DNA of 64,000 nt from Christensenellaceae bacterium (GCA_963674535.1 OY771363.1:177335-241334); one strand, 5' to 3'. Positions 14,456 to 56,850 are shown, counted from the stretch's first letter. Numbers and translations are program-made. The notes: a model not told the origin generated them from the letters alone.

Positions 14456-15322
14456 GCCCCCCGGTCAAGGTGAACGCGGAGGCAAGCTTGACGACTAGGG
14501 GCCTTAGCCTCTTCCAAGTGTGCGCGGCGAAAAAGGAGGGGGGGCGCAAATACTCGACAAAATGGCGCCCCAAGACGAGAACTTCAAAGTCGAAGAAACC
14601 CGCATAAACAGGGCGTTTTTTAAATCTTTGAAGTATAAATATTGAGAAGAAAAACCGGGAGTTTTTGCGGGGTCGCGACGCTTTTTGGAAGCTACAAATA
14701 TCGAGAAAATTGATCGATTTTTCAGCAATATAACAAGCCATATGAAAACCATAACGAACCACACGGCAGTAGTGTGGTTTTTTATTATTTTTCCCATCGG
14801 AGTAAAAGGTGAGATATTGAGAACTCGCATGATTTTTCAAGCCATAATTGACCAAACCATACCGTAAGGAAACCATAGTGAGTCTTTGGTGACTGAGCGG
14901 CTCGTCATGGTTTTTCTGGTTTCCTCAATACGAATATGATTAAACTTTTCTATTCGCTCTTCAGGTCGGATCATACTTGCACGAAAAACCAAGAGTCACA
15001 CTGGGAAATTCACGTCAAATCCAGGCGTTTAGGTCCAAGTGAATACAATCCCTCACGCAGCATTATTGAATGGTCTTTATAAGATTTTTCACATAGTGAC
15101 CTTATGTTGAATTGCGTTGAATCGCTGTGCGAATCTTTGCTTATCAAATTTAAGGTTATAGGCTCCTAAAAGATGTCCGCTTTTGTCCTCTTTTTCGTTG
15201 TGGAATGTGTAGACGCGAACATGTGTTTGTAATAACATATCAATATGGAACACAACAACAACCGTTCTGTAGTTGAATGATCTCACGCAGACAAAGGAAC
15301 GTGAGCAAAAGGAGGACTGTAT

Positions 15323-15502
15323 TTGAAGAACGAATGGATTCGCGAAATGGCGAAATTGAAAGGAGTTCTGCTGTGGCAAATCGCAGACAGACTGGGAATC
15401 ACGGACGGGAACTTCTCTCGCAGACTGCGCCATGAGATGACACAGGAAGAACAGGAAAGGATCAGGGTGATTATCGACGAACTGGCGGAAGAACAAGAAT
15501 GA
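15323..15502 (+). CDS. Small HTH DNA-binding protein (59 aa, TTG start), not in the ORF track
   Basis: AAAGGAGGA RBS, then TTG. MKNEWIREMAKLKGVLLWQIADRLGITDGNFSRRLRHEMTQEEQERIRVIIDELAEEQE. An identical copy lies at 52534-52713. Confidence 0.55.
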   Translation: MKNEWIREMAKLKGVLLWQIADRLGITDGNFSRRLRHEMTQEEQERIRVIIDELAEEQE

Positions 15503-15559
15503 TAGAGTGGCGTCTGCAACATGACTTGATACAGTGCAGGGGTGATCGGGTGAAAAAGT

Positions 15560-16243
15560 ATGGACTATTCTTTTAACGTTGAAATGGCCGTTAAGTATGG
15601 CGTTGAAGAAGCAGTATTACTCCAGCATCTGTATTTCTGGATCCAAAAGAATGCTGCAAACCAGAAGCACTTTCATGACGGATATTTCTGGACCTACAAC
15701 AGCGCGCAGGCGTTCACTGTAATTTTCCCGTTCTGGAGCAGACAGAAGATCGATCGGATGATCCAGTCACTGCGCGAGCAAGGTGCGATTCTAATAGGCA
15801 ACTATAACGATGCCGGACGAGACAGAACCCGTTGGTTTGCATTGTCCGAAATCGTATGCGCCATTGCTGAAAATCGAGCAATGCATTGCTCAGAATTGAG
15901 CAACCCATTGCTCAAAAGTGAGCAACCATTACCAGATAATAAACCAGATAGAAATACAGATAAGAGTGTACGCGCACAATGTCTTACAAGAGGCGAATAC
16001 GGATACGTTAAACTCACAGACGAAGAATATCAGCGTCTGGTAAATGATTTGGGGAAGAGGGAGGTCGAGCGGGCGATCGCCTATCTCGACGAAAGCGCGG
16101 CCATGACCGGAAACAAGAACAGGTGGAAGAACTGGAACCTGGTGATACGGAAAGCGGCACGAGAGAAATGGGGGAAGCGCGAAAGCCCACCGCGGGAGGG
16201 TCGCTTGATCGAGCTTGACGAGGAAGGAAGGTTGGTCACGTGA
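15560..16243 (+). CDS. Putative replication initiator / phage replisome-organizer-like protein
   Basis: 227 aa with an N-terminal winged-helix-like region (VEEAVLLQHLYFWIQKN...) and a DnaD-like C-terminal part. It lies immediately upstream of dnaB in copy B, with start/stop overlap. Confidence 0.55.
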   Translation: MDYSFNVEMAVKYGVEEAVLLQHLYFWIQKNAANQKHFHDGYFWTYNSAQAFTVIFPFWSRQKIDRMIQSLREQGAILIGNYNDAGRDRTRWFALSEIVCAIAENRAMHCSELSNPLLKSEQPLPDNKPDRNTDKSVRAQCLTRGEYGYVKLTDEEYQRLVNDLGKREVERAIAYLDESAAMTGNKNRWKNWNLVIRKAAREKWGKRESPPREGRLIELDEEGRLVT

Positions 16244-16413
16244 ACTATGAAGATTCCATCCTCGGAGATCCGGATACGGCGATCTCAGCCAACTATTTAC
16301 GCTGCTTAATCATATCCGGAAGGATACCGCGCGTGAAGTGCGGTAAGAAGTATCTGATCGATATCGATCTGCTGCAGGACTATCTGTCAAAGTGCATGCA
16401 GGGAAGCGATTAA
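16240..16413 (+). pseudogene. In-frame dnaB'-'xis fusion created by a 1763-bp deletion
   Basis: VNYEDSILG (the first 9 codons of the copy-B dnaB) is joined to DPDTAISANYLRCLIISGRIPRVKCGKKYLIDIDLLQDYLSKCMQGSD (the last 48 codons of the copy-B xis). Confidence 0.6.
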
Positions 16414-16502
16414 TGTTCCGATAAACATCTGAAATCGGACTTGATTGTCGGTTCGATAAGAGCGAACATGCTGAATGACGTAAGAAGGGAGGATGCAAAA
16501 AC

Positions 16503-17864
16503 GTGGCCACAATACTGGAGCGAAACGGTGGTTACCTGATCATGGTCAGCGAAGGGTATGGCCTGGATGGGCGGCAGAAACGAAAGCTCATGACATGGAG
16601 ACCGGAGCCGGGCATGACGAAACGGCAAATCAAAGAAGAACTCACGCTGCAAGCAGCCCTGTTCGAGCGCAGAGTACGATCCGGCCAGGTGCTGGACGGG
16701 CATGTGACGTTCGCGGAATTCGTAGAGCGCTGGAGACGGGATTACGCGGAATTGAACCTTGCCCCGAAAACGCTGGTTCGTTACGGCGAACTGCTGAAGC
16801 GCATCCTCCCTGCAATCGGACACATTCGATTGGACAAGCTGCAGCCGCACCACCTCATGGCCTTTTACGCCGGTCTGCAGAACGCGGAGAATCAAAGCGG
16901 GGCGTCTTTCAAAGCGACGCCTCGCTTGCTATCCGTGTTTGAGCAATCGGGAATGACACGCCAAGCCCTGGCAGACGAAGTTGAGTGCCATGTGAATACG
17001 ATCTACCGTCTGATCCGTGGCCAGGGGGTCGACATCCGCATTGCGCAGGAGGCATGCGATATTCTCGGGGTTCCATTTGCCGAGGGAGCAGAATCGACGA
17101 AACCCGTGCACCAGTTGGCGGGAAAGACGATCAACCACCATCACCGGCTAATCTCGTCGATCCTGAATCAAGCGGTATTCTGGCAGGTGATCACGGACAA
17201 CCCTTCACACCGGGTGAAGCCACCCAAGGTCGAGCGAAAAGAGGCAAAATACCTTGATGAAGAGCAGACCGCGACTCTTCTGCACTTATTGGAAAGCGAA
17301 CCATACCAGAATCAGGTGATGATCCGGCTGTTCCTGCTCAGCGGGGTACGGCGCGGGGAGCTTTGCGGGCTGGAGTGGAAGGACATCGACTTCAAAAACA
17401 ACATGATAACAATCTGCCGAACGTCACAATACCTGCCGGAGAAAGGCATCTTTACGAAAGGCACGAAAACGGATTCTTCCGTACGTACGATCAGGCTGCC
17501 GGAGCAGACGTTTGAGATGTTGAAAGAGTTTCGTAAATGGCAGAGAAAAAGGCGTGTCGCTGTAGGCGACCGCTGGGTTGACTGTGATCGACTTTTCACG
17601 CAAGATGATGGCTCACCGATTCATCCCGACAGTATATCGGGTTGGTTTCACGATTTCATATCGCGGACCGACCTGCCACAGATCTCGATCCACTCCCTGC
17701 GGCACACGAATATCACGCTACTGCTTGCGGCGGGGATTCCGTTGAAGACGGTGAGCTATAGGGCGGGGCATGCGCAGACCTCGACGACCGCGAACATCTA
17801 CTCGCATGCGATAAGGACGGCGGATGAGAAGGCGGCGGAGGTGCTAGAGAATATTGTGTATTAA
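16503..17864 (+). CDS. int: Tyrosine recombinase/integrase (phage integrase family)
   Basis: 453 aa with an N-terminal SAM-like/core-binding region. The C-terminal catalytic region has RRGELCGLEW, HSLRHT and ...NIYSH (catalytic Tyr). Confidence 0.9.
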   Translation: MATILERNGGYLIMVSEGYGLDGRQKRKLMTWRPEPGMTKRQIKEELTLQAALFERRVRSGQVLDGHVTFAEFVERWRRDYAELNLAPKTLVRYGELLKRILPAIGHIRLDKLQPHHLMAFYAGLQNAENQSGASFKATPRLLSVFEQSGMTRQALADEVECHVNTIYRLIRGQGVDIRIAQEACDILGVPFAEGAESTKPVHQLAGKTINHHHRLISSILNQAVFWQVITDNPSHRVKPPKVERKEAKYLDEEQTATLLHLLESEPYQNQVMIRLFLLSGVRRGELCGLEWKDIDFKNNMITICRTSQYLPEKGIFTKGTKTDSSVRTIRLPEQTFEMLKEFRKWQRKRRVAVGDRWVDCDRLFTQDDGSPIHPDSISGWFHDFISRTDLPQISIHSLRHTNITLLLAAGIPLKTVSYRAGHAQTSTTANIYSHAIRTADEKAAEVLENIVY

Positions 17865-17941
17865 TGTGCAAATTGAGAATAAACTTGCGGAAAAAGTAAA
17901 CAAGTGCTAAAATATTTAGCAGTATTGACCGAGGTGAGTGT

Positions 17942-19006
17942 ATGGCACGTAATCAAACAACTATAGCAGACATTGCAAAAGCCGCAAAAGTATCCGCAGG
18001 TACTGTATCAAATGCTTTGAACGATAGAAAAGGAATTAGTCCCGATAAAAAACAGGAAATCCTAGAAATCGCTGAGCGATTGGGATATCGAAAAAGCACC
18101 GAGCAACGTGAATCAAGAGAGATTAGATTCGTGCTTTTCAAAAGGCACGGGTTTGTTGTGGATGACACACCGTTTTTCTCGCAGTTAATTAGTGGTATTG
18201 AAGCGGCTTTACGAACGAACGGGTATCGAATGTTGATTACCCAACTCAATTTGACCGAGAATCATACGAGTGAAACTATTGAGTCACTAGTATGTGATTC
18301 GTGCAATGGCGTACTCGTTTTGGCCACCGAGATGATCCGTGATGATTTGGTTTTATTTAGTGGTTTGAAAAAACCAATTGTTTTCTTAGACAATTACTTC
18401 CGCGATCATCATGCAGATTGCGTTTCGATTGCGAATGAAGAGAGTGCATATGCAGCCACAAGCCTGATTATTAACGCTGGACACACGAAGATAGGACTGC
18501 TATCCAGCTCAACGCATATCAACAATTTCTACTATCGCAAACGTGGCTTTGAGACGGCGCTGCACGATTACGGATTAGAACTATCATCTGCACACGAGGT
18601 TTCGATATGCCCGACATTGGAGGGTAGTTATCGGGATATGAAAGCAATGCTTGCGGATGGAAAACTTAAGCTGCCCACTGCCTTTTTTGCGGAGAATGAT
18701 ATCATCGCGCAAGGAGCGATGCGAGCTCTAAAGGAGTACGGAGTCAGAGTGCCTGAAGATGTATCGATTGTTGGATTTGACGATATGCCCTTCTGTGAAC
18801 TTTTGACTCCACGTCTAACAACCGTCAATGTGAATAAGCAGAATATTGGGCAGGAAGCAGTGGCTTTACTACTCAGAAGGATTGAAGACGACAGAGTTGC
18901 TGCTATATCAACGTTTGTTAAAACAGAAATTGTAAAGCGGGATAGCCTTCTTGACGCGAAGGCGAATGAGTCACTTAACAGAGTATCGGTGGCTGACATG
19001 CTGTGA
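17942..19006 (+). CDS. LacI-family transcriptional regulator
   Basis: N-terminal HTH TIADIAKAAKVSAGTVSNALN followed by a periplasmic-binding-protein-like sugar-binding fold. Confidence 0.9.
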   Translation: MARNQTTIADIAKAAKVSAGTVSNALNDRKGISPDKKQEILEIAERLGYRKSTEQRESREIRFVLFKRHGFVVDDTPFFSQLISGIEAALRTNGYRMLITQLNLTENHTSETIESLVCDSCNGVLVLATEMIRDDLVLFSGLKKPIVFLDNYFRDHHADCVSIANEESAYAATSLIINAGHTKIGLLSSSTHINNFYYRKRGFETALHDYGLELSSAHEVSICPTLEGSYRDMKAMLADGKLKLPTAFFAENDIIAQGAMRALKEYGVRVPEDVSIVGFDDMPFCELLTPRLTTVNVNKQNIGQEAVALLLRRIEDDRVAAISTFVKTEIVKRDSLLDAKANESLNRVSVADML

Positions 19007-19302
19007 TGCTTGATAAAATCAAGATATGTGATGAAGATTGGGGCAGATACTCTCAAGAGTATATGGCCCTTTTTTATCAAAATTGCTAGATACATCATAG
19101 ATAAAACATTTATCTTATAAAACAAAAACATTTATTTATATATTGACATGCATTTTGCTTTATGTTACCTTAAATACACAATACAAAACCAAAACAGATC
19201 AACTTGGGCAAAATTTAAAAAAATCAACAATAAAAAAGACAAACAAATTACAAAACAAAAGCTAAAAAAAGATAAAACTATTAATAGGTGGTTTTGAGGT
19301 TT

Positions 19303-20113
19303 ATGACTTACTCGTTTTATGAAGAAAAAGCGAAAGAGATAAGATCCAGCATCTTAAAACTGGTTTATGAGGGGAACTGTGGGCATACCGGCGGCTCTCT
19401 CTCCGAAACGGATATCATGGTTGCATTGTTCTATGATGTGATGAAATATCGTGTTGAAGAACCAAACTGGTCCCTCCGTGATCGTTTTGTACTGAGCAAG
19501 GGGCATGCGGTTGAGTGCCTATACTGCATTCTGGCAGATGTCGGGTATATTTCCAAAGAAGAACTAAAAACATACGGAAAGTTCGCCACACGCTTAATCG
19601 GGCATCCGAATAATAAGCTCAATGGAATTGAAGTCAATTCTGGCGCGCTTGGTCATGGGTTACCTGTCGCCGTCGGCATGGCACTTTCTCTGAAAAGGGA
19701 TCAACTCGCATCTCGGGTGTTTGCCTTGCTAGGAGATGGAGAACTGGCGGAAGGATCGAATTGGGAAGCGGCTATGGCCGCTTCGAATTACATGCTCGAT
19801 AACCTTTTCGTAATTGTTGACAGAAATCGTCTTCAGATTAGCGGTAATACGGAAGATGTTATGAAACTTGAACCCCTGGCAGACAAATGGCAAAGCTTTG
19901 GATTTGACGTCAGGGAGATAAACGGACATAACTTCGAAGAAATTATACAAGCTACTCTTCCGGCACCCTACTTGAAACCACACGTCATTATAGCTAATAC
20001 GATCAAGGGCAAAGGCGTTGATTTCATGGAGAATCAAGCTAAATGGCATCACGGCGTTCCGACAAATGAGGAAATGGTGAAAGCAATCGATTGTTTGAAG
20101 GAAGGGAACGCTC

Positions 20114-20121
<8 letters not shown>
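19303..20121 (+). CDS. Transketolase, N-terminal (TPP-binding) subunit
   Basis: GHTGGSLS, GHP and GDGELAEGSNWEA motifs of split transketolases. ATG 19303 with a GAGG upstream is preferred over GTG 19288. Confidence 0.9.
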
Positions 20122-22118
<1,997 letters not shown>

Positions 22119-22131
22119 GAGCCAAATAATC

Positions 22132-22172
22132 GACACTGCTGCTTTATGCTCTATGCGTAAAGCAGCAGTGTC
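22132..22172 (+). promoter_or_regulatory. Perfect 15-bp intercistronic stem-loop after the binding-protein gene
   Basis: GACACTGCTGCTTTA (22132-22146) pairs perfectly with TAAAGCAGCAGTGTC (22158-22172). There is no U-tract, so it is more likely an mRNA-stabilising or attenuating hairpin than a full terminator. Confidence 0.5.
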
Positions 22173-22211
22173 AAAGAGAACATGAACGAAACCATAAGGA
22201 AGGTATGCACA

Positions 22212-22877
22212 ATGAAGACGCGCGTTCTTGCGGTAGCCGCTTTTATACTTGCACTCGGTCTTTTTTGCACTGGATGCAATCTGATCACTATCGTTCCACT
22301 GGATATGAATGCCACGGAGCAGACGTTCTATCAAGAAGTAGTTGACTCTGACTTTGATGCAGATGCTTATGCTACTGAACAGTGGGCGGCGATTACAGAT
22401 TATGCTAGCAAGAATAGCAACCCGATTGATTATGTGATTGCGCTCTTTCAGAGGGATCCGAATGCATGCGGCGAAAAGTATGGCACAAGACCGGATGCAA
22501 ATTCCCTATGGCAATATATTACGAACGGAGACGCGGTGGTTTTATTGGTCAACCGCAAGTCTCAGGCGGGGTTACTGGAACTCGACTTGCCGCCATTTGA
22601 TGGTGTAGCGGACTGCTATCTTCAGATTGGTCCAGTCATCAAGGGTCAGGCAATTCGCGATTCTATGCCATTCATCAGCTTTAAAGATTTTGTAAACCAG
22701 CTCCAATTTGGCGATGTAGCAAAAGCATTAAATACATATGCGTATAAAAATGTCATTAGTTCGATTGACATCGATGCATTACAAGGAAAAACGATCAGCT
22801 TTACTGGTGCGTTTACTGCCGAGCCGGGGAAGAACGCGAATATTATTCCAATCATTTTATCAGTTACTGAGGGGTGA
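22212..22877 (+). CDS. DUF2291-like lipoprotein associated with sugar ABC systems
   Basis: Lipobox FCTGC. The position between an RbsB-like gene and the ATPase gene is the usual context of DUF2291 (recalled, not searched). Confidence 0.65.
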   Translation: MKTRVLAVAAFILALGLFCTGCNLITIVPLDMNATEQTFYQEVVDSDFDADAYATEQWAAITDYASKNSNPIDYVIALFQRDPNACGEKYGTRPDANSLWQYITNGDAVVLLVNRKSQAGLLELDLPPFDGVADCYLQIGPVIKGQAIRDSMPFISFKDFVNQLQFGDVAKALNTYAYKNVISSIDIDALQGKTISFTGAFTAEPGKNANIIPIILSVTEG

Positions 22878-22882
22878 GAATC

Positions 22883-24439: not shown

Positions 24440-24449
24440 GGAGACGAAT

Positions 24450-25493
24450 ATGGAACTAAAAAAGCTGTCTAATAAGAACAATGAACTCAGCATTCTGTTA
24501 CTAAAGGCGCGAACGTTTATTGTTCTGATCCTTTTAATAGGAATATTCGCATTACTGGAGCCAAAATTTCTCTCCTGGAATAGCATCATAAGCGTCAGCA
24601 AACACGTAGCGCGCTATGCGATCCTAGCGATCGGCATGACATTCGTTATTGTGAGTGGCGGGATTGACTTGTCGGTTGGCTCGGTCGCCGGATTGAGTGG
24701 CATGATCGCGGGCATGCTAATAAAGGGTATTGTGTTCCGTGCGCAGGGCGTTGTTGTCTATATGAACATCGTTCTGGTAGTAGCAATCGCAGTTTTCATC
24801 GGTGCTTTGATCGGACTGGTCAATGGATTGGCCGTAAGTAAACTCAAAGTGCCGGCGTTTATCGTAACATTGGGAACGGCGAACATTGCGCGAGGTTGCG
24901 CGTTGTTGAGCAATGCGGGCGCTACTTTCCCGAGCTTGATCGGGAAAGCAGAATATCACAACACAGGATTTCCGTTTTTAGGGTCAGGCGCCATCCTGGG
25001 AATCCCGGTGATTATTTGGACAATGATCGTGCTTGCAATTATCAGCGCATATATATTTACAAAAACTCCGCTTGGATGGCATGTTTACGCAACAGGTGGC
25101 AATGAGAAAGCTGCGAAACTCTCGGGCATCAACACCGATAACACGAAACTTTTCGTTTTCATTTTCTCAGCGGCATGTGCCGCGTTGACGGGTGTTTTTG
25201 CAGCAGCGGAGTTGGAAGCAGCACATCCTGCGACAGGTGACGGATGGGAAATGAATGCGATCGCGGCTGCGGTGCTCGGCGGAACCTCAATGATGGGTGG
25301 CATGGGAAATGTTGGCGGAACAATCATCGGCGCTTTCGTTATTGGTGTTTTGACGGATGGCATGGTTATGATGGGGATTTCTTCCTTCTGGCAACAGATT
25401 ATCAAGGGCATCGTCATTATTGCTGCAGTTGTCTTGGATCAGTCACAGCGCGATCTACAGCGAAAAGTGGCACTCACCCGGAAAGATGGATAA
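24450..25493 (+). CDS. Sugar ABC transporter permease (RbsC-like)
   Basis: 347 aa, roughly 9-10 hydrophobic helices, IDLSVGS motif. Confidence 0.9.
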   Translation: MELKKLSNKNNELSILLLKARTFIVLILLIGIFALLEPKFLSWNSIISVSKHVARYAILAIGMTFVIVSGGIDLSVGSVAGLSGMIAGMLIKGIVFRAQGVVVYMNIVLVVAIAVFIGALIGLVNGLAVSKLKVPAFIVTLGTANIARGCALLSNAGATFPSLIGKAEYHNTGFPFLGSGAILGIPVIIWTMIVLAIISAYIFTKTPLGWHVYATGGNEKAAKLSGINTDNTKLFVFIFSAACAALTGVFAAAELEAAHPATGDGWEMNAIAAAVLGGTSMMGGMGNVGGTIIGAFVIGVLTDGMVMMGISSFWQQIIKGIVIIAAVVLDQSQRDLQRKVALTRKDG

Positions 25494-25519
25494 ACGGTAA
25501 ATATTGTTAGGGGGAAATT

Positions 25520-26938: not shown

Positions 26939-26939
26939 T

Positions 26940-28855: not shown

Positions 28856-29239
28856 AACGAGTTTTAAGCTGCTTACGGTTTATGCGTCCGCATATTTTAT
28901 TTGACTGCAGTATATTTTCTTTCTAGGGATCATGCTAAAAGATAGGGTTCGCCTTGCTCTGGCACACATTCACAGGTTCGAGCTGGAAATAAATACTTGC
29001 AGGCGGTTGAGATTTTGCCTAAGGCCATAGGCGGCGTGCATAGCAGAAAACCGGCGGTGCATCTTCGCGAAAGAAACAACTTAGTGGAAGCTGAAACCCA
29101 GAAGATTTTCTTTGAGCGATCACTCATAATCTCATGTAATCGCAGATCATTCTGACGATCAACGATCTCTTACAATAAAGATTACTACAAAGGCAGAAAC
29201 TTTTGATTATCCCGAACAATCCTAGACTATCCAACATCC

Positions 29240-42544: not shown

Positions 42545-42561
42545 GAAAGATGTATGCCTCC

Positions 42562-44998: not shown

Positions 44999-45013
44999 TG
45001 GATTTAACCTCCC

Positions 45014-47210: not shown

Positions 47211-49935
47211 TTACTTCACCTTCCTTTTCATATTCGAGTCCGAAGAATGCATCGTAATGCAGTTTGTATCCTAAAAGAATTGCTGTGTCATTTTCATCGA
47301 AGGGCAGAATGAGGCTGCCCTTGAGCCAAGAGGATTTCTGCCAGAGCGGAAAATGCTCTGTATCGAAAAGCTCGATTTCGTCGATGAGTCTTTTTACAGC
47401 AGAGCCCCCGCATAAAACGGTTGGCAGACGCAGACAATCACGCGCAATGCGGCGAGCTGTATCATCATCCGGCACATCCCGCGTAAGGACAATGCTGGTA
47501 TCCGAAAACAGCGTCAGTGTATCACCGAACGCTCGCACGACATTGACCTCGATGGACTCATCTATATCACGTACTTTTGCGTCCGCAGCGGCGTCGCTCA
47601 GCCGTGTCATGTAGAGCAGGTCTTCGATGGTATCGCCTGCATTCGGGCGTCTTAGTAAGTACGCTCCGGCTTTGCTCTCTTTAACTTCGATTCGCTTCTT
47701 CCAACTCGCCTTCGCCTCTTCATACCCGAGAGGAAACTCCGCAAAGATACTGTCGTCATCACCGTATGTATTTTGAACGAGAGAGGAGATGTCAGAGGGA
47801 ATCGAGATGAACTCCGGCAATAAAACACTTGTCCGCATCAACAGGTAATCGCCATAAATCGCGGAAGAGCCTGATTCAAATTTTTCGCAGTCAGCACCCA
47901 TCACATAGCAGCATGCCTCCACTGTCGCCGTGGGGCGAACCCGTGTGTGCCGGTGCAGACGTCCGATCCGCTGCAGCAATAGATCCATGGGGCACAGATC
48001 CGTAATTAATACATCGACATCAATATCGAGGGATTGCTCAAGTATCTGAGTTCCTACGACAATCCGCAGTTCAGGGCGCTGTGTATTGGGCCCGATGTTA
48101 CCAAGTTCATGGATAAGACCTCGCTCCCTCGTGAGCCTGTCCGAGGAAATCAGCCGTGAATGAATCAATCTAACGCGATCCCCGAATCGTTCGCGCAACA
48201 TACCAGCTATGCTTTGCGCTCTTCTGACGGTATTGACGACAACGCCGACACAGCCACCATCTACGAGCAGCTTTTCGAGCAGGTCTGCGATAAAACCTTC
48301 CGCTATGGGATGAACATAAATACGTTTCGTTTCCGAATCGCTACGAACGGAAAACTGCGCTATTTTTCCTTCGTCCGTGCAGGTGATCAGCGGATAGCCA
48401 GAAACGGTGCTCTTATAAAGACTTTGTTGTTTGGCATGATTATACGCGTTAAGCATCGCGTCTCGCTTTTGAGAAGGAAGCGTAGCGGAGAGCATCACGA
48501 CCGGCACGTTATATGCGCCCAACCAAAGAAGCGTACGCTCCAAGTACTTGTTCATATAGGCATCGAAGGCGTGACACTCGTCAATGATTACAACCTTATT
48601 TGCAAGTCCCACATGGCGTAACATCAGGTGTTTTTGTACGAGAGCCGCTTGAAGGAGCTGATCGATGGTGCCGACTGCAAAATCTGCAAGGATTGAACGC
48701 TTGCGCCCTGTGAACCAGCCCGAAACTGACGCGGCCCAAAAATCGGATTGTCCTTCGTCATCCTCGTCCCAGATCCCATCCTCCGAACCATCGAGCTGGT
48801 GCAGTGCCTGAAACGTGTCGTTGAATTGGGCTTTTCCGTGAATTAACTCGATGGTATGGCTGCCGTCTCCGAGCTGGTCGATCCATTGGAGCATCCGCGG
48901 GAACAAGCCGTCGGAAGTGACTTGTGTGGGCAGAGCAAAAAAGACGCCGTCACGATTGGTTTTATAGGCAAGTATCTCGGCCACTGCCAGAGCGGCTTCC
49001 GTTTTTCCGATACCCATCGGTGCTTCCAGTATCAGCATTCCCGGGGATATTGCGTCTGATACAACTTGGATGGTAGCCGCCTGCACGGCATTTCGACGGA
49101 AAGCAAACCGTGTTTCAAAGAAATCTCCGTCCATCCAGATTGTGTTCGGACTCCAGCGTGATCTTAGGAATGAGGCCGCTCGAAAGGCCATATCGGAGCG
49201 AAGACGACTTACGTCCGAGGAGATTTGTTCGTCAATTTCGATCAAGGGGAAATACTTCTCGTTGCTCGCGATCCAATCTGCAATGATCACCAATCCCGTC
49301 AGAAGCATCTGCGCAGATATATCCGGCAATGGCAACACGCTGAAATCCGAAATCCCAGCTATTCGCTTGGCAAATTCCACAACCTTCATTTGAGTTGCAG
49401 TCCACTGCGAAAAACCCTTATGCTCCATATGAAAATTGTCAGGCTGTGATTCTATGGCATTATCCGTAAGGTCCCCAGAAGAAGGTGTTTTTCCATGATG
49501 TGAGCCGATGATTACCGCGATGCTTTCGGGCAGTCCTGCTCGCTCCAAAATCAGTTGGCCAGCCAGAGCATGCGGCGTTGCACTGGGATTGATAAAGTCA
49601 TCATATCGCTTTATTGGCAATCCGCAAAAGTGAAGGCCTTCAAGAATCCATTCGTTGAGATCCCATGAATTGCCATAGCCAGCTTGTGCCTGAAACAGTG
49701 GTGTTGCCTTCCCTGTATCGTGTGCCGCAGCTGCGAACAGGAATAGCTTCTTTGCCTCGTTGATACTGCAGCGGCAGTGCAAAGCTATGCACTCCTTTAC
49801 GCCCTCTGATACCCATTTTTCCCAGATGTGAGCAGCGATACCCGCACAGTCCTGAAGATGCATTGTCAGCGGCAACCACCGAAGGTCGTTGTTACGGGAC
49901 TTCTTGGCCCATAGGGTATGTAGAGCATCTGTCAT
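47203..49935 (-). CDS. cas3: Cas3 HD nuclease-helicase
   Basis: HD region (...AAAAHDTGKATPLFQ..., GSHHGK), then SF2 helicase motifs (EAPMGIGKTEAAL, DECHAFD, SATLP). Confidence 0.95.
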   Translation of the reverse strand: MTDALHTLWAKKSRNNDLRWLPLTMHLQDCAGIAAHIWEKWVSEGVKECIALHCRCSINEAKKLFLFAAAAHDTGKATPLFQAQAGYGNSWDLNEWILEGLHFCGLPIKRYDDFINPSATPHALAGQLILERAGLPESIAVIIGSHHGKTPSSGDLTDNAIESQPDNFHMEHKGFSQWTATQMKVVEFAKRIAGISDFSVLPLPDISAQMLLTGLVIIADWIASNEKYFPLIEIDEQISSDVSRLRSDMAFRAASFLRSRWSPNTIWMDGDFFETRFAFRRNAVQAATIQVVSDAISPGMLILEAPMGIGKTEAALAVAEILAYKTNRDGVFFALPTQVTSDGLFPRMLQWIDQLGDGSHTIELIHGKAQFNDTFQALHQLDGSEDGIWDEDDEGQSDFWAASVSGWFTGRKRSILADFAVGTIDQLLQAALVQKHLMLRHVGLANKVVIIDECHAFDAYMNKYLERTLLWLGAYNVPVVMLSATLPSQKRDAMLNAYNHAKQQSLYKSTVSGYPLITCTDEGKIAQFSVRSDSETKRIYVHPIAEGFIADLLEKLLVDGGCVGVVVNTVRRAQSIAGMLRERFGDRVRLIHSRLISSDRLTRERGLIHELGNIGPNTQRPELRIVVGTQILEQSLDIDVDVLITDLCPMDLLLQRIGRLHRHTRVRPTATVEACCYVMGADCEKFESGSSAIYGDYLLMRTSVLLPEFISIPSDISSLVQNTYGDDDSIFAEFPLGYEEAKASWKKRIEVKESKAGAYLLRRPNAGDTIEDLLYMTRLSDAAADAKVRDIDESIEVNVVRAFGDTLTLFSDTSIVLTRDVPDDDTARRIARDCLRLPTVLCGGSAVKRLIDEIELFDTEHFPLWQKSSWLKGSLILPFDENDTAILLGYKLHYDAFFGLEYEKEGEVNG

Positions 49936-50410: not shown

Positions 50411-51409
50411 CTATTTGTGTTTCCTATAGATTCCCAAAACCTCCTGCACACGCGTCTTTATCTCGTCAGCGACGAAATCGGGAGAGAGTATCTTCATGCT
50501 CTTTCCGAACTGGAAACACCACCCGAAAAACACGGGGCTGATCATTACTTCTACCTTGGCGGTAAATAGTCCGCGCTTACTAGCGGTAATTTTGACCCGT
50601 TCACCAAACTTATCTTGTACCGCATGGATCAGCTTCCCGTCAAACTGCAGTTCAACCGTTTCTTTCGGTCCGTTGAACATCTTAAAAACACACTCGGTAT
50701 AGGAGCCAAGCTCGCCGGATAATACAATCGCCTGTTCGGCAACCGGCTCGTTTTCCGCTCGCACATCCGCCATGCGGTCGACACGGTAGTTAACGGTCGT
50801 TTCATGCGTTTCATGATAGGTGACCAGGTAGTAATTATCTTCGTGATAAACAAGGCCAACAGGATTGACGATGTAGCGCTCTCCACTTTTCCGGAAGATA
50901 CGATCTCCATTCTCATCCAGATCGAAGTATTGAAAGGATGCTTTCTGCTTCTGCTCCAGCGCACGCTCCAAAGCATCAACCGTGTAATAGATCGCTTCGT
51001 TTGTGTGCTTGCGCGTGTTGAAGGTGACCATGTTTCCTTTGAGTGCAGCCGCCATATGACTTCCAGCTAGGTATGCAATTTTGCCGCTCAGTGTTTTTGT
51101 TTTCGAGGGCGTAATAAAACTGGCAGCTTGAATTGCATCGATCAGAATCTTGATCTCCGCAATATCGAACTGCCGATCGACGATATAATATTGTTTGGCA
51201 TATCTTGTACGGTAATGGAGTACTTCAAAGCCATTGGCGTTTAGTACTTCGATGTCTTCGGATAAAGTACGGCGATCACATACGATGCCTTCCGCTTGAA
51301 GCATGGCGCAAAGTTGCTTTGTCGACAAGGGTGTATCTTCGTCCGTATGCTGGCGAAGGATTTCATAAAGCTTTAGTAATTTAATCTTTTGCGGGCAGAT
51401 TGTGTTCAT
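50411..51409 (-). CDS. HTH + WYL-domain transcriptional regulator (BrxR/CapW/PafBC-like architecture)
   Basis: N-terminal winged HTH (KLLKLYEILRQHTDEDTPLSTKQLCAML...). Central WYL-like block (YIVNPVGLVYHEDNYYLVTYHE...VNYRVDRM) and a C-terminal extension. Start chosen at MNTICPQ. Confidence 0.8.
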   Translation of the reverse strand: MNTICPQKIKLLKLYEILRQHTDEDTPLSTKQLCAMLQAEGIVCDRRTLSEDIEVLNANGFEVLHYRTRYAKQYYIVDRQFDIAEIKILIDAIQAASFITPSKTKTLSGKIAYLAGSHMAAALKGNMVTFNTRKHTNEAIYYTVDALERALEQKQKASFQYFDLDENGDRIFRKSGERYIVNPVGLVYHEDNYYLVTYHETHETTVNYRVDRMADVRAENEPVAEQAIVLSGELGSYTECVFKMFNGPKETVELQFDGKLIHAVQDKFGERVKITASKRGLFTAKVEVMISPVFFGWCFQFGKSMKILSPDFVADEIKTRVQEVLGIYRKHK

Positions 51410-52533
51410 AATCGCTCCGAACTGTTTACTGACTATTATATCAAACAGATTCAAGGAATACAACTTTAAGCTGTCAATTTTTAAAGACATCTTCATTAGA
51501 TTGGGGAAGCGTGATATTACAGCTGTAAATCTCCGTCTGACAGGAGAAAGAACAATTCGATTTGCGTTGAAACTTACCTGGTATGCCGAAACTCAGGCGA
51601 ACAAAGCTGTAATGCGATATAAATTAGTTATCATTAACGATACCAAGTCAGATATATCCCCCCCGGTCAGGGCGAACGCGGACGCAGGCTTAACGACCAG
51701 GGGCCTTAGCCTCTTCCAAGTGCGCGCGGGAAAAAAGGGAGGGGGGCGCAAATACTCGGCGAAATGACGCTTCCGAACACGATTCAGAAAACCTGAGAAA
51801 CCCGCATAAATAGGGCGTTTATTGAAGCTATGAAGTAAAAACATTGGTCGGAAAAATCAGGGGTTTTTGCGGGGTCGCGACGTTTTTTCGAAGCTAAAAA
51901 TATCGAGAAAATTGATCGATTTTTCCGCTTCACATTCAACCATATTGAGCCATATGAAAACCATAACGAGCCACACGGCAGCAGTGTGGCTTTTTATTGT
52001 TTTTCCCATCGGAGTAAAAGTTGAATAATTGAGAAAATCTCATTGTTTTTCGAGCCATAATTAGCCATAGTATACCGCAAGAAAACCATAGTGAGCCTCT
52101 TAAGACTGAGTGGCTCGCCATGGCTTTTCTGGTTTCCAAAATACGAATATGATTAACTTTTCAATTCGCTTTTCAGGTCGGATCATACTTGCACGAAAAA
52201 CCAAGAGTCACACCGGAAAATTCACGTCAATACCAGGCGTTTAGGCCCAAGTGAAGACAATCCCTCACGCAGCATTATTGAATGGTATTTAAAAAATTTT
52301 TCAAATAGTGACCTTATGTTGCATTGCGCTGAATCGCTGTGCGAATTTCTGCTTATCATATTTTAGGCTATAGGCTCCAAAACATGTCCGCTTTTGTCCT
52401 CTTTTTCGTTGTGGAATGTGTAGACGCGAACATGTGTTTGTAATAACATATCAATATGGAACACAACAACAACCGTTCTGTAGTTGAATGATCTCACGCA
52501 GACAAAGGAACGTGAGCAAAAGGAGGACTGTAT

Positions 52534-52713
52534 TTGAAGAACGAATGGATTCGCGAAATGGCGAAATTGAAAGGAGTTCTGCTGTGGCAAATCGCAGACA
52601 GACTGGGAATCACGGACGGGAACTTCTCTCGCAGACTGCGCCATGAGATGACACAGGAAGAACAGGAAAGGATCAGGGTGATTATCGACGAACTGGCGGA
52701 AGAACAAGAATGA
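52534..52713 (+). CDS. Small HTH DNA-binding protein (copy B)
   Basis: Identical to 15323-15502. Confidence 0.55.
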   Translation: MKNEWIREMAKLKGVLLWQIADRLGITDGNFSRRLRHEMTQEEQERIRVIIDELAEEQE

Positions 52714-52770
52714 TAGAGTGGCGTCTGCAACATGACTTGATACAGTGCAGGGGTGATCGGGTGAAAAAGT

Positions 52771-53454
52771 ATGGACTATTCTTTTAACGTTGAAATGGCC
52801 GTTAAGTATGGCGTTGAAGAAGCAGTATTACTCCAGCATCTGTATTTCTGGATCCAAAAGAATGCTGCAAACCAGAAGCACTTTCATGACGGATATTTCT
52901 GGACCTACAACAGCGCGCAGGCGTTCACTGTAATTTTCCCGTTCTGGAGCAGACAGAAGATCGATCGGATGATCCAGTCACTGCGCGAGCAAGGTGCGAT
53001 TCTAATAGGCAACTATAACGATGCCGGACGAGACAGAACCCGTTGGTTTGCATTGTCCGAAATCGTATGCGCCATTGCTGAAAATCGAGCAATGCATTGC
53101 TCAGAATTGAGCAACCCATTGCTCAAAAGTGAGCAACCATTACCAGATAATAAACCAGATAGAAATACAGATAAGAGTGTACGCGCACAATGTCTTACAA
53201 GAGGCGAATACGGATACGTTAAACTCACAGACGAAGAATATCAGCGTCTGGTAAATGATTTGGGGAAGAGGGAGGTCGAGCGGGCGATCGCCTATCTCGA
53301 CGAAAGCGCGGCCATGACCGGAAACAAGAACAGGTGGAAGAACTGGAACCTGGTGATACGGAAAGCGGCACGAGAGAAATGGGGGAAGCGCGAAAGCCCA
53401 CCGCGGGAGGGTCGCTTGATCGAGCTTGACGAGGAAGGAAGGTTGGTCACGTGA
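52771..53454 (+). CDS. Putative replication initiator / replisome-organizer-like protein (copy B)
   Basis: The 227-aa translation is identical to 15560-16243. Confidence 0.55.
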   Translation: MDYSFNVEMAVKYGVEEAVLLQHLYFWIQKNAANQKHFHDGYFWTYNSAQAFTVIFPFWSRQKIDRMIQSLREQGAILIGNYNDAGRDRTRWFALSEIVCAIAENRAMHCSELSNPLLKSEQPLPDNKPDRNTDKSVRAQCLTRGEYGYVKLTDEEYQRLVNDLGKREVERAIAYLDESAAMTGNKNRWKNWNLVIRKAAREKWGKRESPPREGRLIELDEEGRLVT

Positions 53455-54683
53455 ACTATGAAGATTCCATCCTCGGAGCCGCAATCATTGAACCGTCTGT
53501 TGTTCCGCTGATCTGTGGAGAGCTGTCCTCCGAGGATTTCACGACTGCACAGACCCGGAATACTTTCGTTGCGATTCAATCCTTGTGGGAATCCGGCTTG
53601 CCGATCGATCTTGTGACGCTGACGTCTGAGCTGGAGCGGAGGGGTATCCTGTCGCAGGTTGGCGGAACAACATACCTCGCGGACATTGTATTGTATACCC
53701 CGACGGCAGCGAATACGAAAGCGTATATTGATCTCATGCACGAGGCGCGGAAGCGCAGAGTCTTCACGGCCGGTATGAAACGGGCGATCACGGGTGCAGA
53801 GAACGGGGACGACAGCTTTCTGGAGGAAGCAAGATCAACGCTAGATACGGTCAGTACGATCGGAGCGACAGAAATCCGAATGCTGAGCGACCTGCTGCCG
53901 GAAGTCGTGAATCGACTTGGGGATACCACGCGAGGCAAACATACAGGGTATGCTGGGCTAGATGCGGTGACGGGCGGACTGCGAGAAGGGCATTTGGTGA
54001 TCATTGCAGCTCGACCGGGGGTTGGGAAAACGTCGTTCGCCTGCAATCTAGCCGCAAACATGTGCAGACAGGGAATGACATGCGCCTACTTTTCGATCGA
54101 AATGAGCGCAGTGGAGATTGCTGAGAGAATTAGCCTTTCGGAAGCGATGGTAGATAAGTACAAGGCACAAAAGGATCCGCCGTCAGCAAGACTCCTGATG
54201 GGTGCACAGGAAAAGGTATGGAACTGGAAACTGTATATTGACGATCGGGGCAGTCTGTCCGTTGGACAAGTCGTCTCCAACGCGTACAAGTACAAACAGC
54301 GCTCCGGATCGCTGGACTGCATCTTTATCGATTACCTGCAGCTTATGCGTCTGCCGGGCGGTAAGAACGACAGCAAGAACGAGCGGATCGGTGAAGCGAC
54401 GCGCGGACTGAAAATCCTCGCAAAAGAAATCAAGTGCCCGGTGGTTGCGCTCGCCCAGTTGAATCGAAATGCAGACGGGCGACGCCCGACGATCGCTGAC
54501 ATTCGGGACAGCGGCAATATCGAGCAGGACGCTGATCTCATTCTGCTGCTCCACAGAGAAAACGATCAGCCGGAAGATGCAACGCTGATCATTGGGAAGA
54601 ACCGGCATGGGGCGACGAGAGATATTCCAATGATCTGGAAACACCAATGGACACGTTATCTGGAAACGAAGCTGGCAAAGTAA
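53451..54683 (+). CDS. dnaB: Replicative DNA helicase (DnaB family)
   Basis: 410 aa. N-terminal DnaB domain (SILGAAIIEPS...), Walker A ARPGVGKTSF, FIDYLQLM, and an arginine-finger region RDSGNIEQDADL. Confidence 0.9.
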   Translation: MNYEDSILGAAIIEPSVVPLICGELSSEDFTTAQTRNTFVAIQSLWESGLPIDLVTLTSELERRGILSQVGGTTYLADIVLYTPTAANTKAYIDLMHEARKRRVFTAGMKRAITGAENGDDSFLEEARSTLDTVSTIGATEIRMLSDLLPEVVNRLGDTTRGKHTGYAGLDAVTGGLREGHLVIIAARPGVGKTSFACNLAANMCRQGMTCAYFSIEMSAVEIAERISLSEAMVDKYKAQKDPPSARLLMGAQEKVWNWKLYIDDRGSLSVGQVVSNAYKYKQRSGSLDCIFIDYLQLMRLPGGKNDSKNERIGEATRGLKILAKEIKCPVVALAQLNRNADGRRPTIADIRDSGNIEQDADLILLLHRENDQPEDATLIIGKNRHGATRDIPMIWKHQWTRYLETKLAK

Positions 54684-54697
54684 AAGGAGAGGAACGA

Positions 54698-54982
54698 ATG
54701 GAAGAGATCAGGGAAACGGCATATGACTGGACGACGCGCGACAGCCGGGGTTACTTCTCGACGAATCAGAAAAGAGAGATCCGTAGAATGACCGGTTTTG
54801 CAGAAACGAGGCCGGACGAGGTGACCATACTAAAAGAGCCGGAAACGAACGGCGGTTATTTAGTAGCGCTTGTTCCGAAAGCGTGGTTCAGCATGAAACC
54901 GCCGCGGAAAAGAAAGCTGACAGACGAACAGCGGGTAATTATCTCAAAAAGGATGTCGGAAATGCGAATCAGGAATGCTTAG
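54698..54982 (+). CDS. Hypothetical 94-aa protein
   Basis: AGGAGAGG RBS. MEEIRETAYDWTTRDSRGYFSTNQKREIRR... No family recognised. Confidence 0.45.
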   Translation: MEEIRETAYDWTTRDSRGYFSTNQKREIRRMTGFAETRPDEVTILKEPETNGGYLVALVPKAWFSMKPPRKRKLTDEQRVIISKRMSEMRIRNA

Positions 54983-55159
54983 GGGAAATATTCACGATAC
55001 GCACCGAACGCGCGAAATCGACGCAATTTTCACGTGAATAACAATGGTTTTCAACCAAGAAAACGACAGCCGCCGGGCTGGGAATGATAGTATAGGGAAT
55101 TTGCATTTAATTTTGAAATCAGATGCGGCGGAACAGATGGGCAAAGAAAGGAAAATGAA

Positions 55160-55387
55160 ATGCTGGAAGACAATGGAACCGTACTCCGCGTACCGCGCAT
55201 GCGTACGCTCTCCGAAGTGTATGCGTACATCAAAGCGGCAGATCCGGATACGGCGATCTCAGCCAACTATTTACGCTGCTTAATCATATCCGGAAGGATA
55301 CCGCGCGTGAAGTGCGGTAAGAAGTATCTGATCGATATCGATCTGCTGCAGGACTATCTGTCAAAGTGCATGCAGGGAAGCGATTAA
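55160..55387 (+). CDS. xis: Excisionase / HTH_17-type DNA-binding protein
   Basis: 75 aa. ...MRTLSEVYAYIKAADPDTAISANYLRCLIISGRIPRVKCGKKYLIDIDLL..., directly upstream of the integrase. Confidence 0.7.
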   Translation: MLEDNGTVLRVPRMRTLSEVYAYIKAADPDTAISANYLRCLIISGRIPRVKCGKKYLIDIDLLQDYLSKCMQGSD

Positions 55388-55476
55388 TGTTCCGATAAAC
55401 ATCTGAAATCGGACTTGATTGTCGGTTCGATAAGAGCGAACATGCTGAATGACGTAAGAAGGGAGGATGCAAAAAC

Positions 55477-56850
55477 GTGGCCACAATACTGGAGCGAAAC
55501 GGTGGTTACCTGATCATGGTCAGCGAAGGGTATGGCCTGGATGGGCGGCAGAAACGAAAGCTCATGACATGGAGACCGGAGCCGGGCATGACGAAACGGC
55601 AAATCAAAGAAGAACTCACGCTGCAAGCAGCCCTGTTCGAGCGCAGAGTACGATCCGGCCAGGTGCTGGACGGGCATGTGACGTTCGCGGAATTCGTAGA
55701 GCGCTGGAGACGGGATTACGCGGAATTGAACCTTGCCCCGAAAACGCTGGTTCGTTACGGCGAACTGCTGAAGCGCATCCTCCCTGCAATCGGACACATT
55801 CGATTGGACAAGCTGCAGCCGCACCACCTCATGGCCTTTTACGCCGGTCTGCAGAACGCGGAGAATCAAAGCGGGGCGTCTTTCAAAGCGACGCCTCGCT
55901 TGCTATCCGTGTTTGAGCAATCGGGAATGACACGCCAAGCCCTGGCAGACGAAGTTGAGTGCCATGTGAATACGATCTACCGTCTGATCCGTGGCCAGGG
56001 GGTCGACATCCGCATTGCGCAGGAGGCATGCGATATTCTCGGGGTTCCATTTGCCGAGGGAGCAGAATCGACGAAACCCGTGCACCAGTTGGCGGGAAAG
56101 ACGATCAACCACCATCACCGGCTAATCTCGTCGATCCTGAATCAAGCGGTATTCTGGCAGGTGATCACGGACAACCCTTCACACCGGGTGAAGCCACCCA
56201 AGGTCGAGCGAAAAGAGGCAAAATACCTTGATGAAGAGCAGACCGCGACTCTTCTGCACTTATTGGAAAGCGAACCATACCAGAATCAGGTGATGATCCG
56301 GCTGTTCCTGCTCAGCGGGGTACGGCGCGGGGAGCTTTGCGGGCTGGAGTGGAAGGACATCGACTTCAAAAACAACATGATAACAATCTGCCGAACGTCA
56401 CAATACCTGCCGGAGAAAGGCATCTTTACGAAAGGCACGAAAACGGATTCTTCCGTACGTACGATCAGGCTGCCGGAGCAGACGTTTGAGATGTTGAAAG
56501 AGTTTCGTAAATGGCAGAGAAAAAGGCGTGTCGCTGTAGGCGACCGCTGGGTTGACTGTGATCGACTTTTCACGCAAGATGATGGCTCACCGATTCATCC
56601 CGACAGTATATCGGGTTGGTTTCACGATTTCATATCGCGGACCGACCTGCCACAGATCTCGATCCACTCCCTGCGGCACACGAATATCACGCTACTGCTT
56701 GCGGCGGGGATTCCGTTGAAGACGGTGAGCTATAGGGCGGGGCATGCGCAGACCTCGACGACCGCGAACATCTACTCGCATGCGATCCGATCGGTGGATG
56801 AAAAGGCGGCGGAGACGTTAGGAGTTTTTATAAGTCGAAATATCAGATGA
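55477..56850 (+). CDS. int: Tyrosine recombinase/integrase (copy B)
   Basis: Identical to the copy-A integrase through ...ANIYSHAIR, then a different C-terminal tail (SVDEKAAETLGVFISRNIR versus TADEKAAEVLENIVY). Confidence 0.9.
   Translation: MATILERNGGYLIMVSEGYGLDGRQKRKLMTWRPEPGMTKRQIKEELTLQAALFERRVRSGQVLDGHVTFAEFVERWRRDYAELNLAPKTLVRYGELLKRILPAIGHIRLDKLQPHHLMAFYAGLQNAENQSGASFKATPRLLSVFEQSGMTRQALADEVECHVNTIYRLIRGQGVDIRIAQEACDILGVPFAEGAESTKPVHQLAGKTINHHHRLISSILNQAVFWQVITDNPSHRVKPPKVERKEAKYLDEEQTATLLHLLESEPYQNQVMIRLFLLSGVRRGELCGLEWKDIDFKNNMITICRTSQYLPEKGIFTKGTKTDSSVRTIRLPEQTFEMLKEFRKWQRKRRVAVGDRWVDCDRLFTQDDGSPIHPDSISGWFHDFISRTDLPQISIHSLRHTNITLLLAAGIPLKTVSYRAGHAQTSTTANIYSHAIRSVDEKAAETLGVFISRNIR

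Follow-up and report, generated by a model that had tools for sequence, protein, structure and literature searches.

Introduction

Tandem accretion of integrative elements with internal attachment (att) sites is an established process, exemplified by ICESt1 and ICESt3, which are integrative and conjugative elements (ICEs), together with cis-mobilisable elements (CIMEs) in Streptococcus thermophilus, by the composite ICE-attI-IME_Sag2603_tRNAlys of Streptococcus agalactiae, which includes an integrative and mobilisable element (IME), and by tandem arrays of Salmonella genomic island 1 (SGI1) (PMC5704250). Complex excision patterns are observed in such arrays, and mobilisation in cis or in trans can occur (PMC5704250). 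Here, we describe a locus within a 64,000-nt stretch of DNA from a Christensenellaceae bacterium (GCA_963674535.1, OY771363.1:177335-241334), hereafter referred to as the window, in which two direct repeats, designated copies A and B, each encode a tyrosine integrase and flank an interval that holds a sugar operon and a complete type I-E CRISPR (clustered regularly interspaced short palindromic repeats)-Cas locus. Of the processes known, tandem accretion at the 3' end of a target gene comes closest, and the window probably covers a portion of an array in which two related genomic islands follow each other at the 3' half of an initiator tRNA-Met gene.

As in the accreted ICE, IME and SGI1 arrays (PMC5704250), integration appears to be site-specific and directed to the 3' end of a gene, and one partner is decayed, which is often the case in those arrays. 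Unlike those arrays, however, the target is the initiator tRNA-Met gene, no conjugation module, relaxase or origin of transfer (oriT) was seen, and the backbone encodes a DnaD-like initiator and a DnaB helicase and is partly 100% identical between the two islands. Genomic islands that carry CRISPR-Cas together with tyrosine-recombinase integration modules have furthermore been described for Vibrio (PMC5109276, PMC6360697). There, as in the window, complete CRISPR-Cas systems are located on an integrase-bearing island and not on the core chromosome, whereas the window derives from Christensenellaceae (Bacillota), possesses another recombination module and has its CRISPR-Cas locus in a slot adjacent to a WYL regulator gene.

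At the level of the recombinase, the window resembles Tn916 and Tn1549, the integrases of which likewise combine SAM-like core-binding and catalytic domains, with an excisionase-family helix-turn-helix (HTH) gene located just upstream. Tn916 and Tn1549 use AT-rich targets; by comparison, the integrases described here contain an HTH_3 insert and would act strictly at a tRNA-fMet site that bears arm motifs. A comparable organization is also known from phage-inducible chromosomal islands and other phage satellites, in that the integrase gene is terminal, the regulator gene is divergent and the replication module includes a helicase of its own, although the islands described here would measure about 35-40 kb rather than about 10-15 kb.

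Attachment site and related loci

The interval between the two copies was shown to contain, on the minus strand at positions 29345-29389, the 3' half of an initiator tRNA-Met(CAT) gene, which confirms the orphan tRNA half that a first-pass annotation of this DNA had placed at 29345. This half runs from the anticodon loop (CTCATAA) to CCA, and a terminator hairpin is located directly at its 3' end, the stem of which covaries among related loci (CCGCCC/GGGCGG versus GTCCCT/AGGGAC). A 20-nt arm motif, AAACATCAAATAAACATCAG, is present on both sides of the tRNA half (at 29244 and 29516) and nowhere else in the window, and neither an arm motif nor a tRNA was detected to the right of 29545 up to position 64000. 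When the whole window was compared with Rfam, nothing reached the gathering threshold, and matches around the tRNA half were at chance level.

Element-type arms on both sides of a core are what tandem integration leaves between two elements, whereas a tRNA 5' half that continues past the core marks the tRNA-proximal end of an integrated element. At 29195-29545, arms (here termed P and P') enclose the core, Int A being encoded on the left side of this site and Int B on its right side. The att site coupled to the integrase module thus includes the 3' portion of a tRNA gene. The P-core-P' segment would therefore represent the junction between two tandem elements.

To place this arrangement in a wider context, relatives of the integrase were considered, many of which (at 82-95% amino acid (aa) identity) are encoded by Christensenellaceae metagenome-assembled genomes and by digester and wastewater metagenomes. 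The same order, i.e. xis-int, a variable insert, the arm motif, a terminator and the tRNA-fMet 3' half, was observed in the window and in 20 related loci (L001-L003, L007-L010, L012-L014, L016, L017, L019, L020, L024, L025, L043, L065, L066 and L082). The insert between int and the P arm ranges from ~60 bp (L043, L065, L066 and L082) to ~10 kb in these relatives and is 11.3 kb in length for copy A. The idea that the tRNA half is a relic unrelated to the copies was rejected on the basis of this family-wide int-cargo-att order.

Alignment at the site revealed sequences that are identical through GGGTTATGAG, after which they continue either into a tRNA 5' half with a conserved upstream region or into a P' arm. 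A complete tRNA-Met(CAT) gene is present at the site in L008, L012, L013, L014, L016 and L017, as predicted by ARAGORN, and also in L082. A P' arm with a second arm motif is found instead in the window, L019, L020 and L024, as based on the alignment, and also in L001, L002 and L065.

On one contig, CAXXPJ010000003.1 (L020-L019-L017), three int genes were identified in one orientation at distances of 38-40 kb, with P-core-P' following the first two and a full tRNA-fMet following the last; the corresponding backbones have 2.2-2.4 kb in common at 90-91% identity. Because this contig holds three islands with similar backbones, arrays of islands of about 36-41 kb with repeated backbones would appear to be a feature of the integrase family. 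A single-island sibling is represented by L082 (JGI Ga0374214_000874), which is collinear with positions 50156-56814 of the window (83.5% identity over 6.7 kb), encompassing the WYL regulator gene and the whole backbone, and in which the backbone runs directly into a P arm, a terminator and a full tRNA-fMet. To the left of the WYL gene, L082 encodes a type I restriction-modification (R-M) system (HsdM, HsdS and a 789-aa gene) at the position where the window has cas3. In L062, cas3 (94% aa identity), the WYL gene (84% aa identity), the non-coding region and the backbone are encountered in the same order as in the window.

Comparison of the two copies

The window was compared with itself by BLAST, after which the two copies were compared base by base. 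Copies A (14457-17864) and B (51659-56850) are repeated in the same orientation and gave rise to two direct self-matches, 14457-16267 with 51659-53478 (94.0%) and 16263-17840 with 55236-56814 (99.6%); beyond these and the CRISPR array, BLAST of the window against itself revealed no long repeats. Two identical blocks had previously been recognized by eye, and both held up with 0 mismatches, over 1095 bp (15173-16267 = 52384-53478) and 1547 bp (16266-17812 = 55240-56786, which includes the block formerly given as 16268-17812). The left parts of the copies, at 14457-15172 (716 bp) and 51659-52383 (725 bp), are 85.0% identical with 23 gap positions, the 3' ends of the integrase genes diverge over the last 8-12 codons, and copy B carries an extra 1761 bp (53479-55239) that is absent from copy A. 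Megablast of copy B against plasmid and phage collections returned no match, and exact-protein look-ups with Int A, Int B, p227, an ABC exporter and the WYL protein of the window likewise yielded no record.

The abrupt rise in identity from 85% to 100% at 15173, and the drop at 17812, suggest that sequence has already passed between the two backbones, and the 2.6 kb at 100% identity may be attributed to recent recombination or gene conversion between them. The right end of the homology is located inside the last int codons in all relatives, and would mark a cargo boundary rather than the end of an element. The left start of the homology is sharp, at 14457 and 51657-51659 (CCCCCCGGTCA…), and both L062 and L082 stay collinear across this point. 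A search at the ends of the A/B homology revealed no att-type or direct repeats and no shared 9-mers.

Gene content of the backbones

The int-xis-rep gene content that had been assigned to these copies was substantiated by the presence of a tyrosine integrase, a 75-aa excisionase-like protein, and p227 plus a DnaB-type helicase (Table 1). The integrase match to PF00589 spans positions 1-168 of the 172 profile positions (E 9e-26), that to PF14659 has an E value of 1e-10, and the sequences VRRGE, HSLRH and NIYSH, representing the conserved Arg...His-x-x-Arg...Tyr residues, are present in both integrase copies. In Int A, an arm-binding N-terminus is followed by a SAM-like domain, an HTH_3 insert and the catalytic domain (PF00589, PF14659, PF01381), and among solved structures the best matches are 3nkh and the Tn1549 Int structures 6emy/6emz (E 6e-17 to 7e-20). 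The HTH_3 insert is of the Cro/C1 type, occupies residues ~142-194 between the core-binding and catalytic domains, and is found family-wide according to precomputed Pfam matches.

The presumed initiator p227 matches PHROG 11233 ('replication initiation protein', E 1e-30) and PHROG 6493 ('DnaD-like helicase loader', E 3e-21), and the gene encoding the 59-aa protein is syntenic in L062-L068 and L082. The non-coding region at the left end of the backbone is also kept in L007, L062, L020 and L082; it contains no conserved open reading frame (ORF), and no iterons or promoters were detected in it above shuffled expectation. A metagenome pattern scan with a 23-nt conserved stretch of this region gave zero matches, and a role as regulatory region or origin is a guess.

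The 1761-bp loss removed the DnaB helicase gene, the 111-aa gene and the 5' end of xis from copy A, with the deletion junction at 16267/16268 exhibiting a 2-bp AG microhomology. Because the deletion fuses the start of dnaB to the C-terminal part of xis, copy A would constitute a decayed deletion derivative that lacks the helicase and an intact excisionase.

Sequencing depth and further copies

The strain was found to be present in three public runs only (X22-X24), for which assembled contigs were used, which break at repeats; the run index contained no other strain. In X23 and X24, the single-copy flanks exhibited depths of 81-87x, the copy-B-only segment 83-96x and the copy-A deletion junction 65-90x, and the depth of the interval equals that of the flanks. 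The deletion junction of copy A appears in X22-X24 as the joint 53476->55240 at about 1x, the A-type and B-type 3' ends of int are present as alternative branches off the shared block, and the flanks of both copies represent unique contigs of equal depth.

Two additional joints were observed, 15618^GCT^17304 (= 52829/56278) in X22-X24 and 16265->17303 (= 53476/56277) in X23 and X24 only, being absent from X22, each at approximately single-copy depth. These joints reveal at least two more, differently deleted backbones in the same samples. The B-type int end with its CheR-kinase cargo was observed at 2-3x, mostly without the insertion sequence (IS) of the IS3 family, and in the source sample the arm motif and the tRNA-half core reach 8-12x and 17-27x single-copy depth, respectively, with several different flanks. 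Some of these extra copies may originate from co-resident relatives, the runs holding millions of contigs. Joints at the tRNA-half core in the contigs of the three runs were only variants of other copies.

In X22, in which mean contig depths are noisy, the DnaB-containing segment 53604-55122 has a depth of 18-22x versus 36-46x for single-copy flanks; in X23 and X24 the segment is present at 1x single-copy depth. The lower value in X22 may stem from a subpopulation whose copy B has likewise lost the segment, or from noise.

Cargo of the two proposed islands

Since the 20 related loci separate int from att by variable cargo, the sugar operon would represent cargo of the left island (island 1). 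This operon (17942-28855) encodes a LacI regulator, a split transketolase, an ABC (ATP-binding cassette) sugar transporter, a sugar isomerase-like protein, an FGGY kinase and RbsD/FucU. Positions 18546-28858 were found at 90-99% identity in unrelated metagenomes from biofilm, freshwater, groundwater and soil (16-48% of 31-mers in common) that lack the flanks of the window, which suggests that the operon is a widely exchanged module. Run X39 contains an int-to-P-arm joint, 17845->29232, that bypasses the sugar operon.

The CRISPR-Cas locus and the WYL regulator gene would belong to the right island (island 2), because they are linked to the core in L062 (cas3) and L082 (WYL). The type I-E CRISPR-Cas system is thus regarded as probable cargo of the island with the copy B backbone, and the WYL regulator, which is syntenic with the core in L062 and in L082 (86% aa identity), as a probable part of the conserved island backbone. 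A WYL homologue was also observed in L083, beside SNF2/DUF4391/methylase genes. At core A, the position to the left of the core is held by a fragment of an IS3-family transposase gene, whereas in sibling islands it is held by the WYL gene; this fragment shows an 87% match to an IS in L001 and is multicopy in the reads, where contigs break at 14110-14140.

All cas genes produced Pfam matches except for cas2, which was recognized from its translation. The gene following cas1 (40669-41664, minus strand) encodes, as read by eye from motifs in the translation, a Cas2 protein (…RLRGSLTKWLEEIDTCVYVG…) fused to a DnaQ-like DEDDh exonuclease (…IIVDVETTGLS…HRAIADCHTT…). Comparison of the spacers with the window and the related loci yielded only chance matches of 15-16 nt. 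The left arm of island 2 contains an IS256-family transposase gene and an IS3 fragment, in agreement with the IS copies reported previously for this interval, which is indeed mosaic.

In the cargo slot of island 2, the CheR-kinase-regulator block (56800-62549) was observed at 2-3x single-copy depth. An IS3-free form (joint 58042->59311) is present at 2.5-3x, most copies in the reads being without the IS3 insertion, and, relative to the window, the majority contig lacks 1 nt at 57048 and has a T>C change at 57172.

Further observations concern the left flank of island 1 and cargo in a related locus. The region to the left of copy A (48-14072) encodes two ABC exporters, one of which has a C39 peptidase domain, a STAS protein, a BspA-type leucine-rich repeat (LRR) protein, a TIR-FHA protein (804 aa), a PP2C phosphatase and a Ser/Thr kinase with LRRs; this accessory cluster, possibly involved in defence or signalling, may form the left arm of island 1. 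In L002/L018, a 1.8-kb cargo (encoding a DUF4177 protein and a dynamin-like GTPase) is located between 74-bp direct repeats (11195-11268 and 13000-13073). The 74-bp repeat corresponds to the P arm including the arm motif, and this duplication hints that some cargo may enter by site-specific recombination at the arm.

Table 1. Features of the 64,000-nt window, with the proposed assignment to islands 1 and 2
Feature	Position	Strand	Remarks
IS3-family transposase, C-terminal fragment	14111..14346	-	Directly left of core A; Pfam rve_2/rve_3, ORF 14140-14517
Non-coding left region, core A	14457..15172	+	85.0% identical to copy-B region, with indels
59-aa small DNA-binding-like protein	A 15323..15502; B 52534-52713	+	Identical in A and B; PHROG 17740, E 4e-15
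p227 (227 aa), replication initiator/DnaD-like helicase loader	A 15560..16243; B 52771-53454	+	Identical in A and B
Fusion ORF across 1761-bp deletion, copy A	16240..16413	+	9 dnaB codons joined to C-terminal part of xis
Int A, tyrosine integrase	16503..17864	+	453 aa; same as Int B up to codon 437
Island 1 cargo slot (proposed)	17865..29194	+	11.3 kb, between Int A and P arm; Pfam/NCBIfam
P arm of att site	29195..29344	+	Arm motif AAACATCAAATAAACATCAG at 29244-29263; rho-independent terminator hairpin at 29312-29343
att core, 3' half of initiator tRNA-Met(CAT)	29345..29389	-	Anticodon loop to CCA; without 5' half
P' arm	29390..29545	+	Second arm motif copy at 29516-29535
Island 2 left arm (proposed), small ORFs etc.	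29546..35530	.	Pfam
Rieske protein	30685-31314	-	Pfam
Major facilitator superfamily (MFS) transporter	31253-32560	-	Pfam
IS256-family transposase	33394-34647	+	Pfam
IS3 OrfA/end fragment	about 35300-35510		Read from sequence
CRISPR array	35539..40658	-	84 repeats of 29 nt, 83 spacers of 32 nt
Type I-E cas operon, complete	40669..49935	-	cas3, cse1, cse2, cas7, cas5, cas6e, cas1, cas2
HTH-WYL-WCX regulator	50411..51496	-	Pfam WYL/WCX; divergent from core B
Core B, intact backbone	51659..56850	+	Non-coding region, 59-aa protein, p227, DnaB, p111, Xis, Int B
DnaB-type helicase	53451-54683	+	Copy B only; PF03796, E 2e-71
p111 (111 aa)	54647-54982	+	Copy B only; no match
Xis, 75-aa excisionase-like protein	55160-55387	+	Copy B; HTH_17/TIGR01764, weak
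Int B, tyrosine integrase	55477-56850	+	457 aa
Island 2 cargo slot (proposed)	56851..64000	+	Right att site expected beyond the window
CheR methyltransferase	57030-57959	+	Pfam
IS3 insertion in island 2 cargo	about 58046-59311
Hybrid histidine kinase	59301-62189	+	Pfam
Response regulator with PAS domains	62179 to beyond 64000	+	Pfam

Class assignment

The islands would not qualify as ICEs, because no conjugation or type IV secretion domains were found in the scanned ORFs of the window. Similarly, they would not represent phage satellites, because packaging, capsid-redirecting and terminase-small-subunit genes were not found, comparison of the backbone with PHROGs and Pfam having given only replication and integration matches. 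With regard to IMEs, in which an oriT and/or a relaxase accompanies the integration and excision module, no relaxase or mobilisation domain was detected in the scanned ORFs of the window, in which Int and Xis are present and p111 and several small ORFs are without matches; an oriT is not recognizable from sequence alone. The structure would also differ from a composite transposon, as the repeats encode int/xis/rep functions and not transposases; inverted repeats of at least 100 nt were not present in the window.

Alternative explanations

A map of this kind could also result from Campbell-type entry, in which a circular island of ~39 kb, composed of a backbone, the sugar operon, an intact attP and a left arm with CRISPR-Cas and WYL, was inserted by homologous recombination into a resident backbone, leaving attP unused. 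Such an event predicts the exact order observed (core, sugar operon, P-core-P', CRISPR-Cas/WYL, core) and fits the 2.6 kb of perfect identity, and its reverse reaction would generate the circle that the first-pass annotation had envisaged. However, tandem site-specific integration would produce an identical map and is directly paralleled by the three-island array, both halves of the window fit the canonical L082 island layout without an extra event, and the resident backbone would have to be located away from tRNA-fMet, which nothing supports. Entry by this route is considered unlikely.

The first-pass annotation had interpreted the copies as small (3.4-5.2 kb), self-contained int-xis-rep elements, inserted independently around 34 kb of chromosomal DNA, forming a composite that could be lost by recombination or moved by the integrase. 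The presence of direct repeats that match perfectly over 1.1 and 1.5 kb, the sharp ends of the homology, the further copy in the reads with the same left end, and the physical possibility of homologous deletion are all compatible with this view. Nevertheless, the homology ends lack direct repeats or att sequences, an att site of this family is located inside the interval at 11.3 kb past int A, relatives invariably display the order int-cargo-att, the WYL gene and a defence locus accompany the core in L062 and L082, and the right homology end falls within the last int codons throughout the family. Two independent insertions bracketing chromosomal DNA are thus judged quite improbable, and the bracketing as originally proposed is not maintained. 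Movement of the whole composite by the integrase is likewise not supported, since the sole att site in the window is internal to the interval, and Int/Xis acting there would separate the sugar operon from CRISPR-Cas. The suggestion of a transferable cassette stands in so far as both the sugar operon and CRISPR-Cas appear to be carried on mobile-element DNA; they would do so on two islands and not as one unit.

An assembly artefact, in which one element was assembled twice or a repeat was collapsed or expanded and misplaced, is hardly credible: consensus polishing of repeats could produce perfect identity, but the copy-A-only junction and the copy-B-only 1.8-kb segment each occur at approximately single-copy depth in three runs, both types of int 3' end are present as branches, and the flanks of both copies are unique contigs at equal depth.

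Several observations weigh against a tandem array of two islands. ARAGORN predicted no full tRNA in the window, both outer att sites would lie beyond it, and the full extents of the islands are therefore projected from the layout of their relatives. The left boundary of island 2 is set solely by the logic of the att site, because no conserved genes follow the P' arm among seven loci, which have an IS256-type transposase alone in common. The further copy in the reads begins at the same left point with another upstream flank (loose end 51656), and the sharp start at 14457/51659 is not accounted for by a tandem-island model. Moreover, no deletion, circle or excision product was present in the contigs of X22-X24, which cannot span the repeats, and with regard to a route between cells, no relaxase, oriT or packaging gene was found in the window.

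Proposed organization and recombination of the islands

The tandem-island interpretation, which we hold to be the probable one, draws on the anatomy of the window, the int-cargo-att order, the full-tRNA form of the site, the three-island array and the single-island sibling with the same backbone. Integration would proceed into the 3' half of the initiator tRNA-Met gene by means of a Tn916/Tn1549-type tyrosine integrase and an excisionase. Each island would consist of a P' arm, a variable left arm, the backbone, a variable cargo slot, and a P arm followed by the terminator and the tRNA-half core. Where seen (island 2, L062 and L082), the left arm would hold a defence system beside the WYL regulator, and the backbone order would be non-coding region, 59-aa protein, p227, DnaB helicase, p111, Xis and Int.

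Island 1 would accordingly extend from the left end of the window, or beyond, to 29389 and comprise the IS3 fragment, the decayed backbone A, the sugar operon, and the P arm plus core. Island 2 would extend from 29390 to beyond 64000 and comprise the P' arm, the Rieske/MFS genes, IS256 and IS3 remnants, CRISPR-Cas, WYL, backbone B and the CheR/kinase/regulator cargo. Int and Xis would cut at the tRNA-half core (29345-29389) and at the outer att sites, and island 1 would depend on Xis supplied in trans by island 2.

RecA-type deletion or circularization, as previously put forward, is possible, the repeats being long, direct and partly identical. Recombination between the two backbones would excise a circle of 37-39 kb with an intact P-core-P' and thereby reassort cargo, a crossover in the first identical block removing 37,211 bp and one in the second block 38,974 bp. 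This circle would contain one backbone, the sugar operon, the P-core-P' site and CRISPR-Cas/WYL, and would represent a recombinant island form with an intact attP.

Implications

The corrected map is that of two stacked islands that meet at 29345-29389, and not of a 34-kb segment between small elements, which alters the choice of primers or read junctions that would reveal mobility. It also alters which genes would travel together: the decayed backbone would take the sugar operon along, and the intact one CRISPR-Cas. The targeting of tRNA genes by islands, tandem accretion and the presence of CRISPR-Cas on islands are already established. The present locus is distinguished by a tRNA-fMet target, a replication module of the DnaD-like/DnaB type, and two slots, one adjacent to WYL for defence systems and one proximal to int for cargo.

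A wider interpretation is offered tentatively: the backbone may define a family of self-replicating, tRNA-fMet-specific islands in Christensenellaceae with two exchange slots, in which arrays reassort cargo and circles with attP re-integrate. If so, the WYL-adjacent slot would swap defence systems, such as type I-E CRISPR-Cas (the window and L062) and type I R-M (L082), and the int-proximal slot, which opens within the last int codons, would swap metabolic or signalling operons.

The present analysis documents a recurrent island backbone in Christensenellaceae, a little-studied family of gut and digester bacteria. The location of a type I-E system with a very long array in a slot occupied by a restriction system in a sibling island fits the notion of defence systems as exchangeable island cargo.

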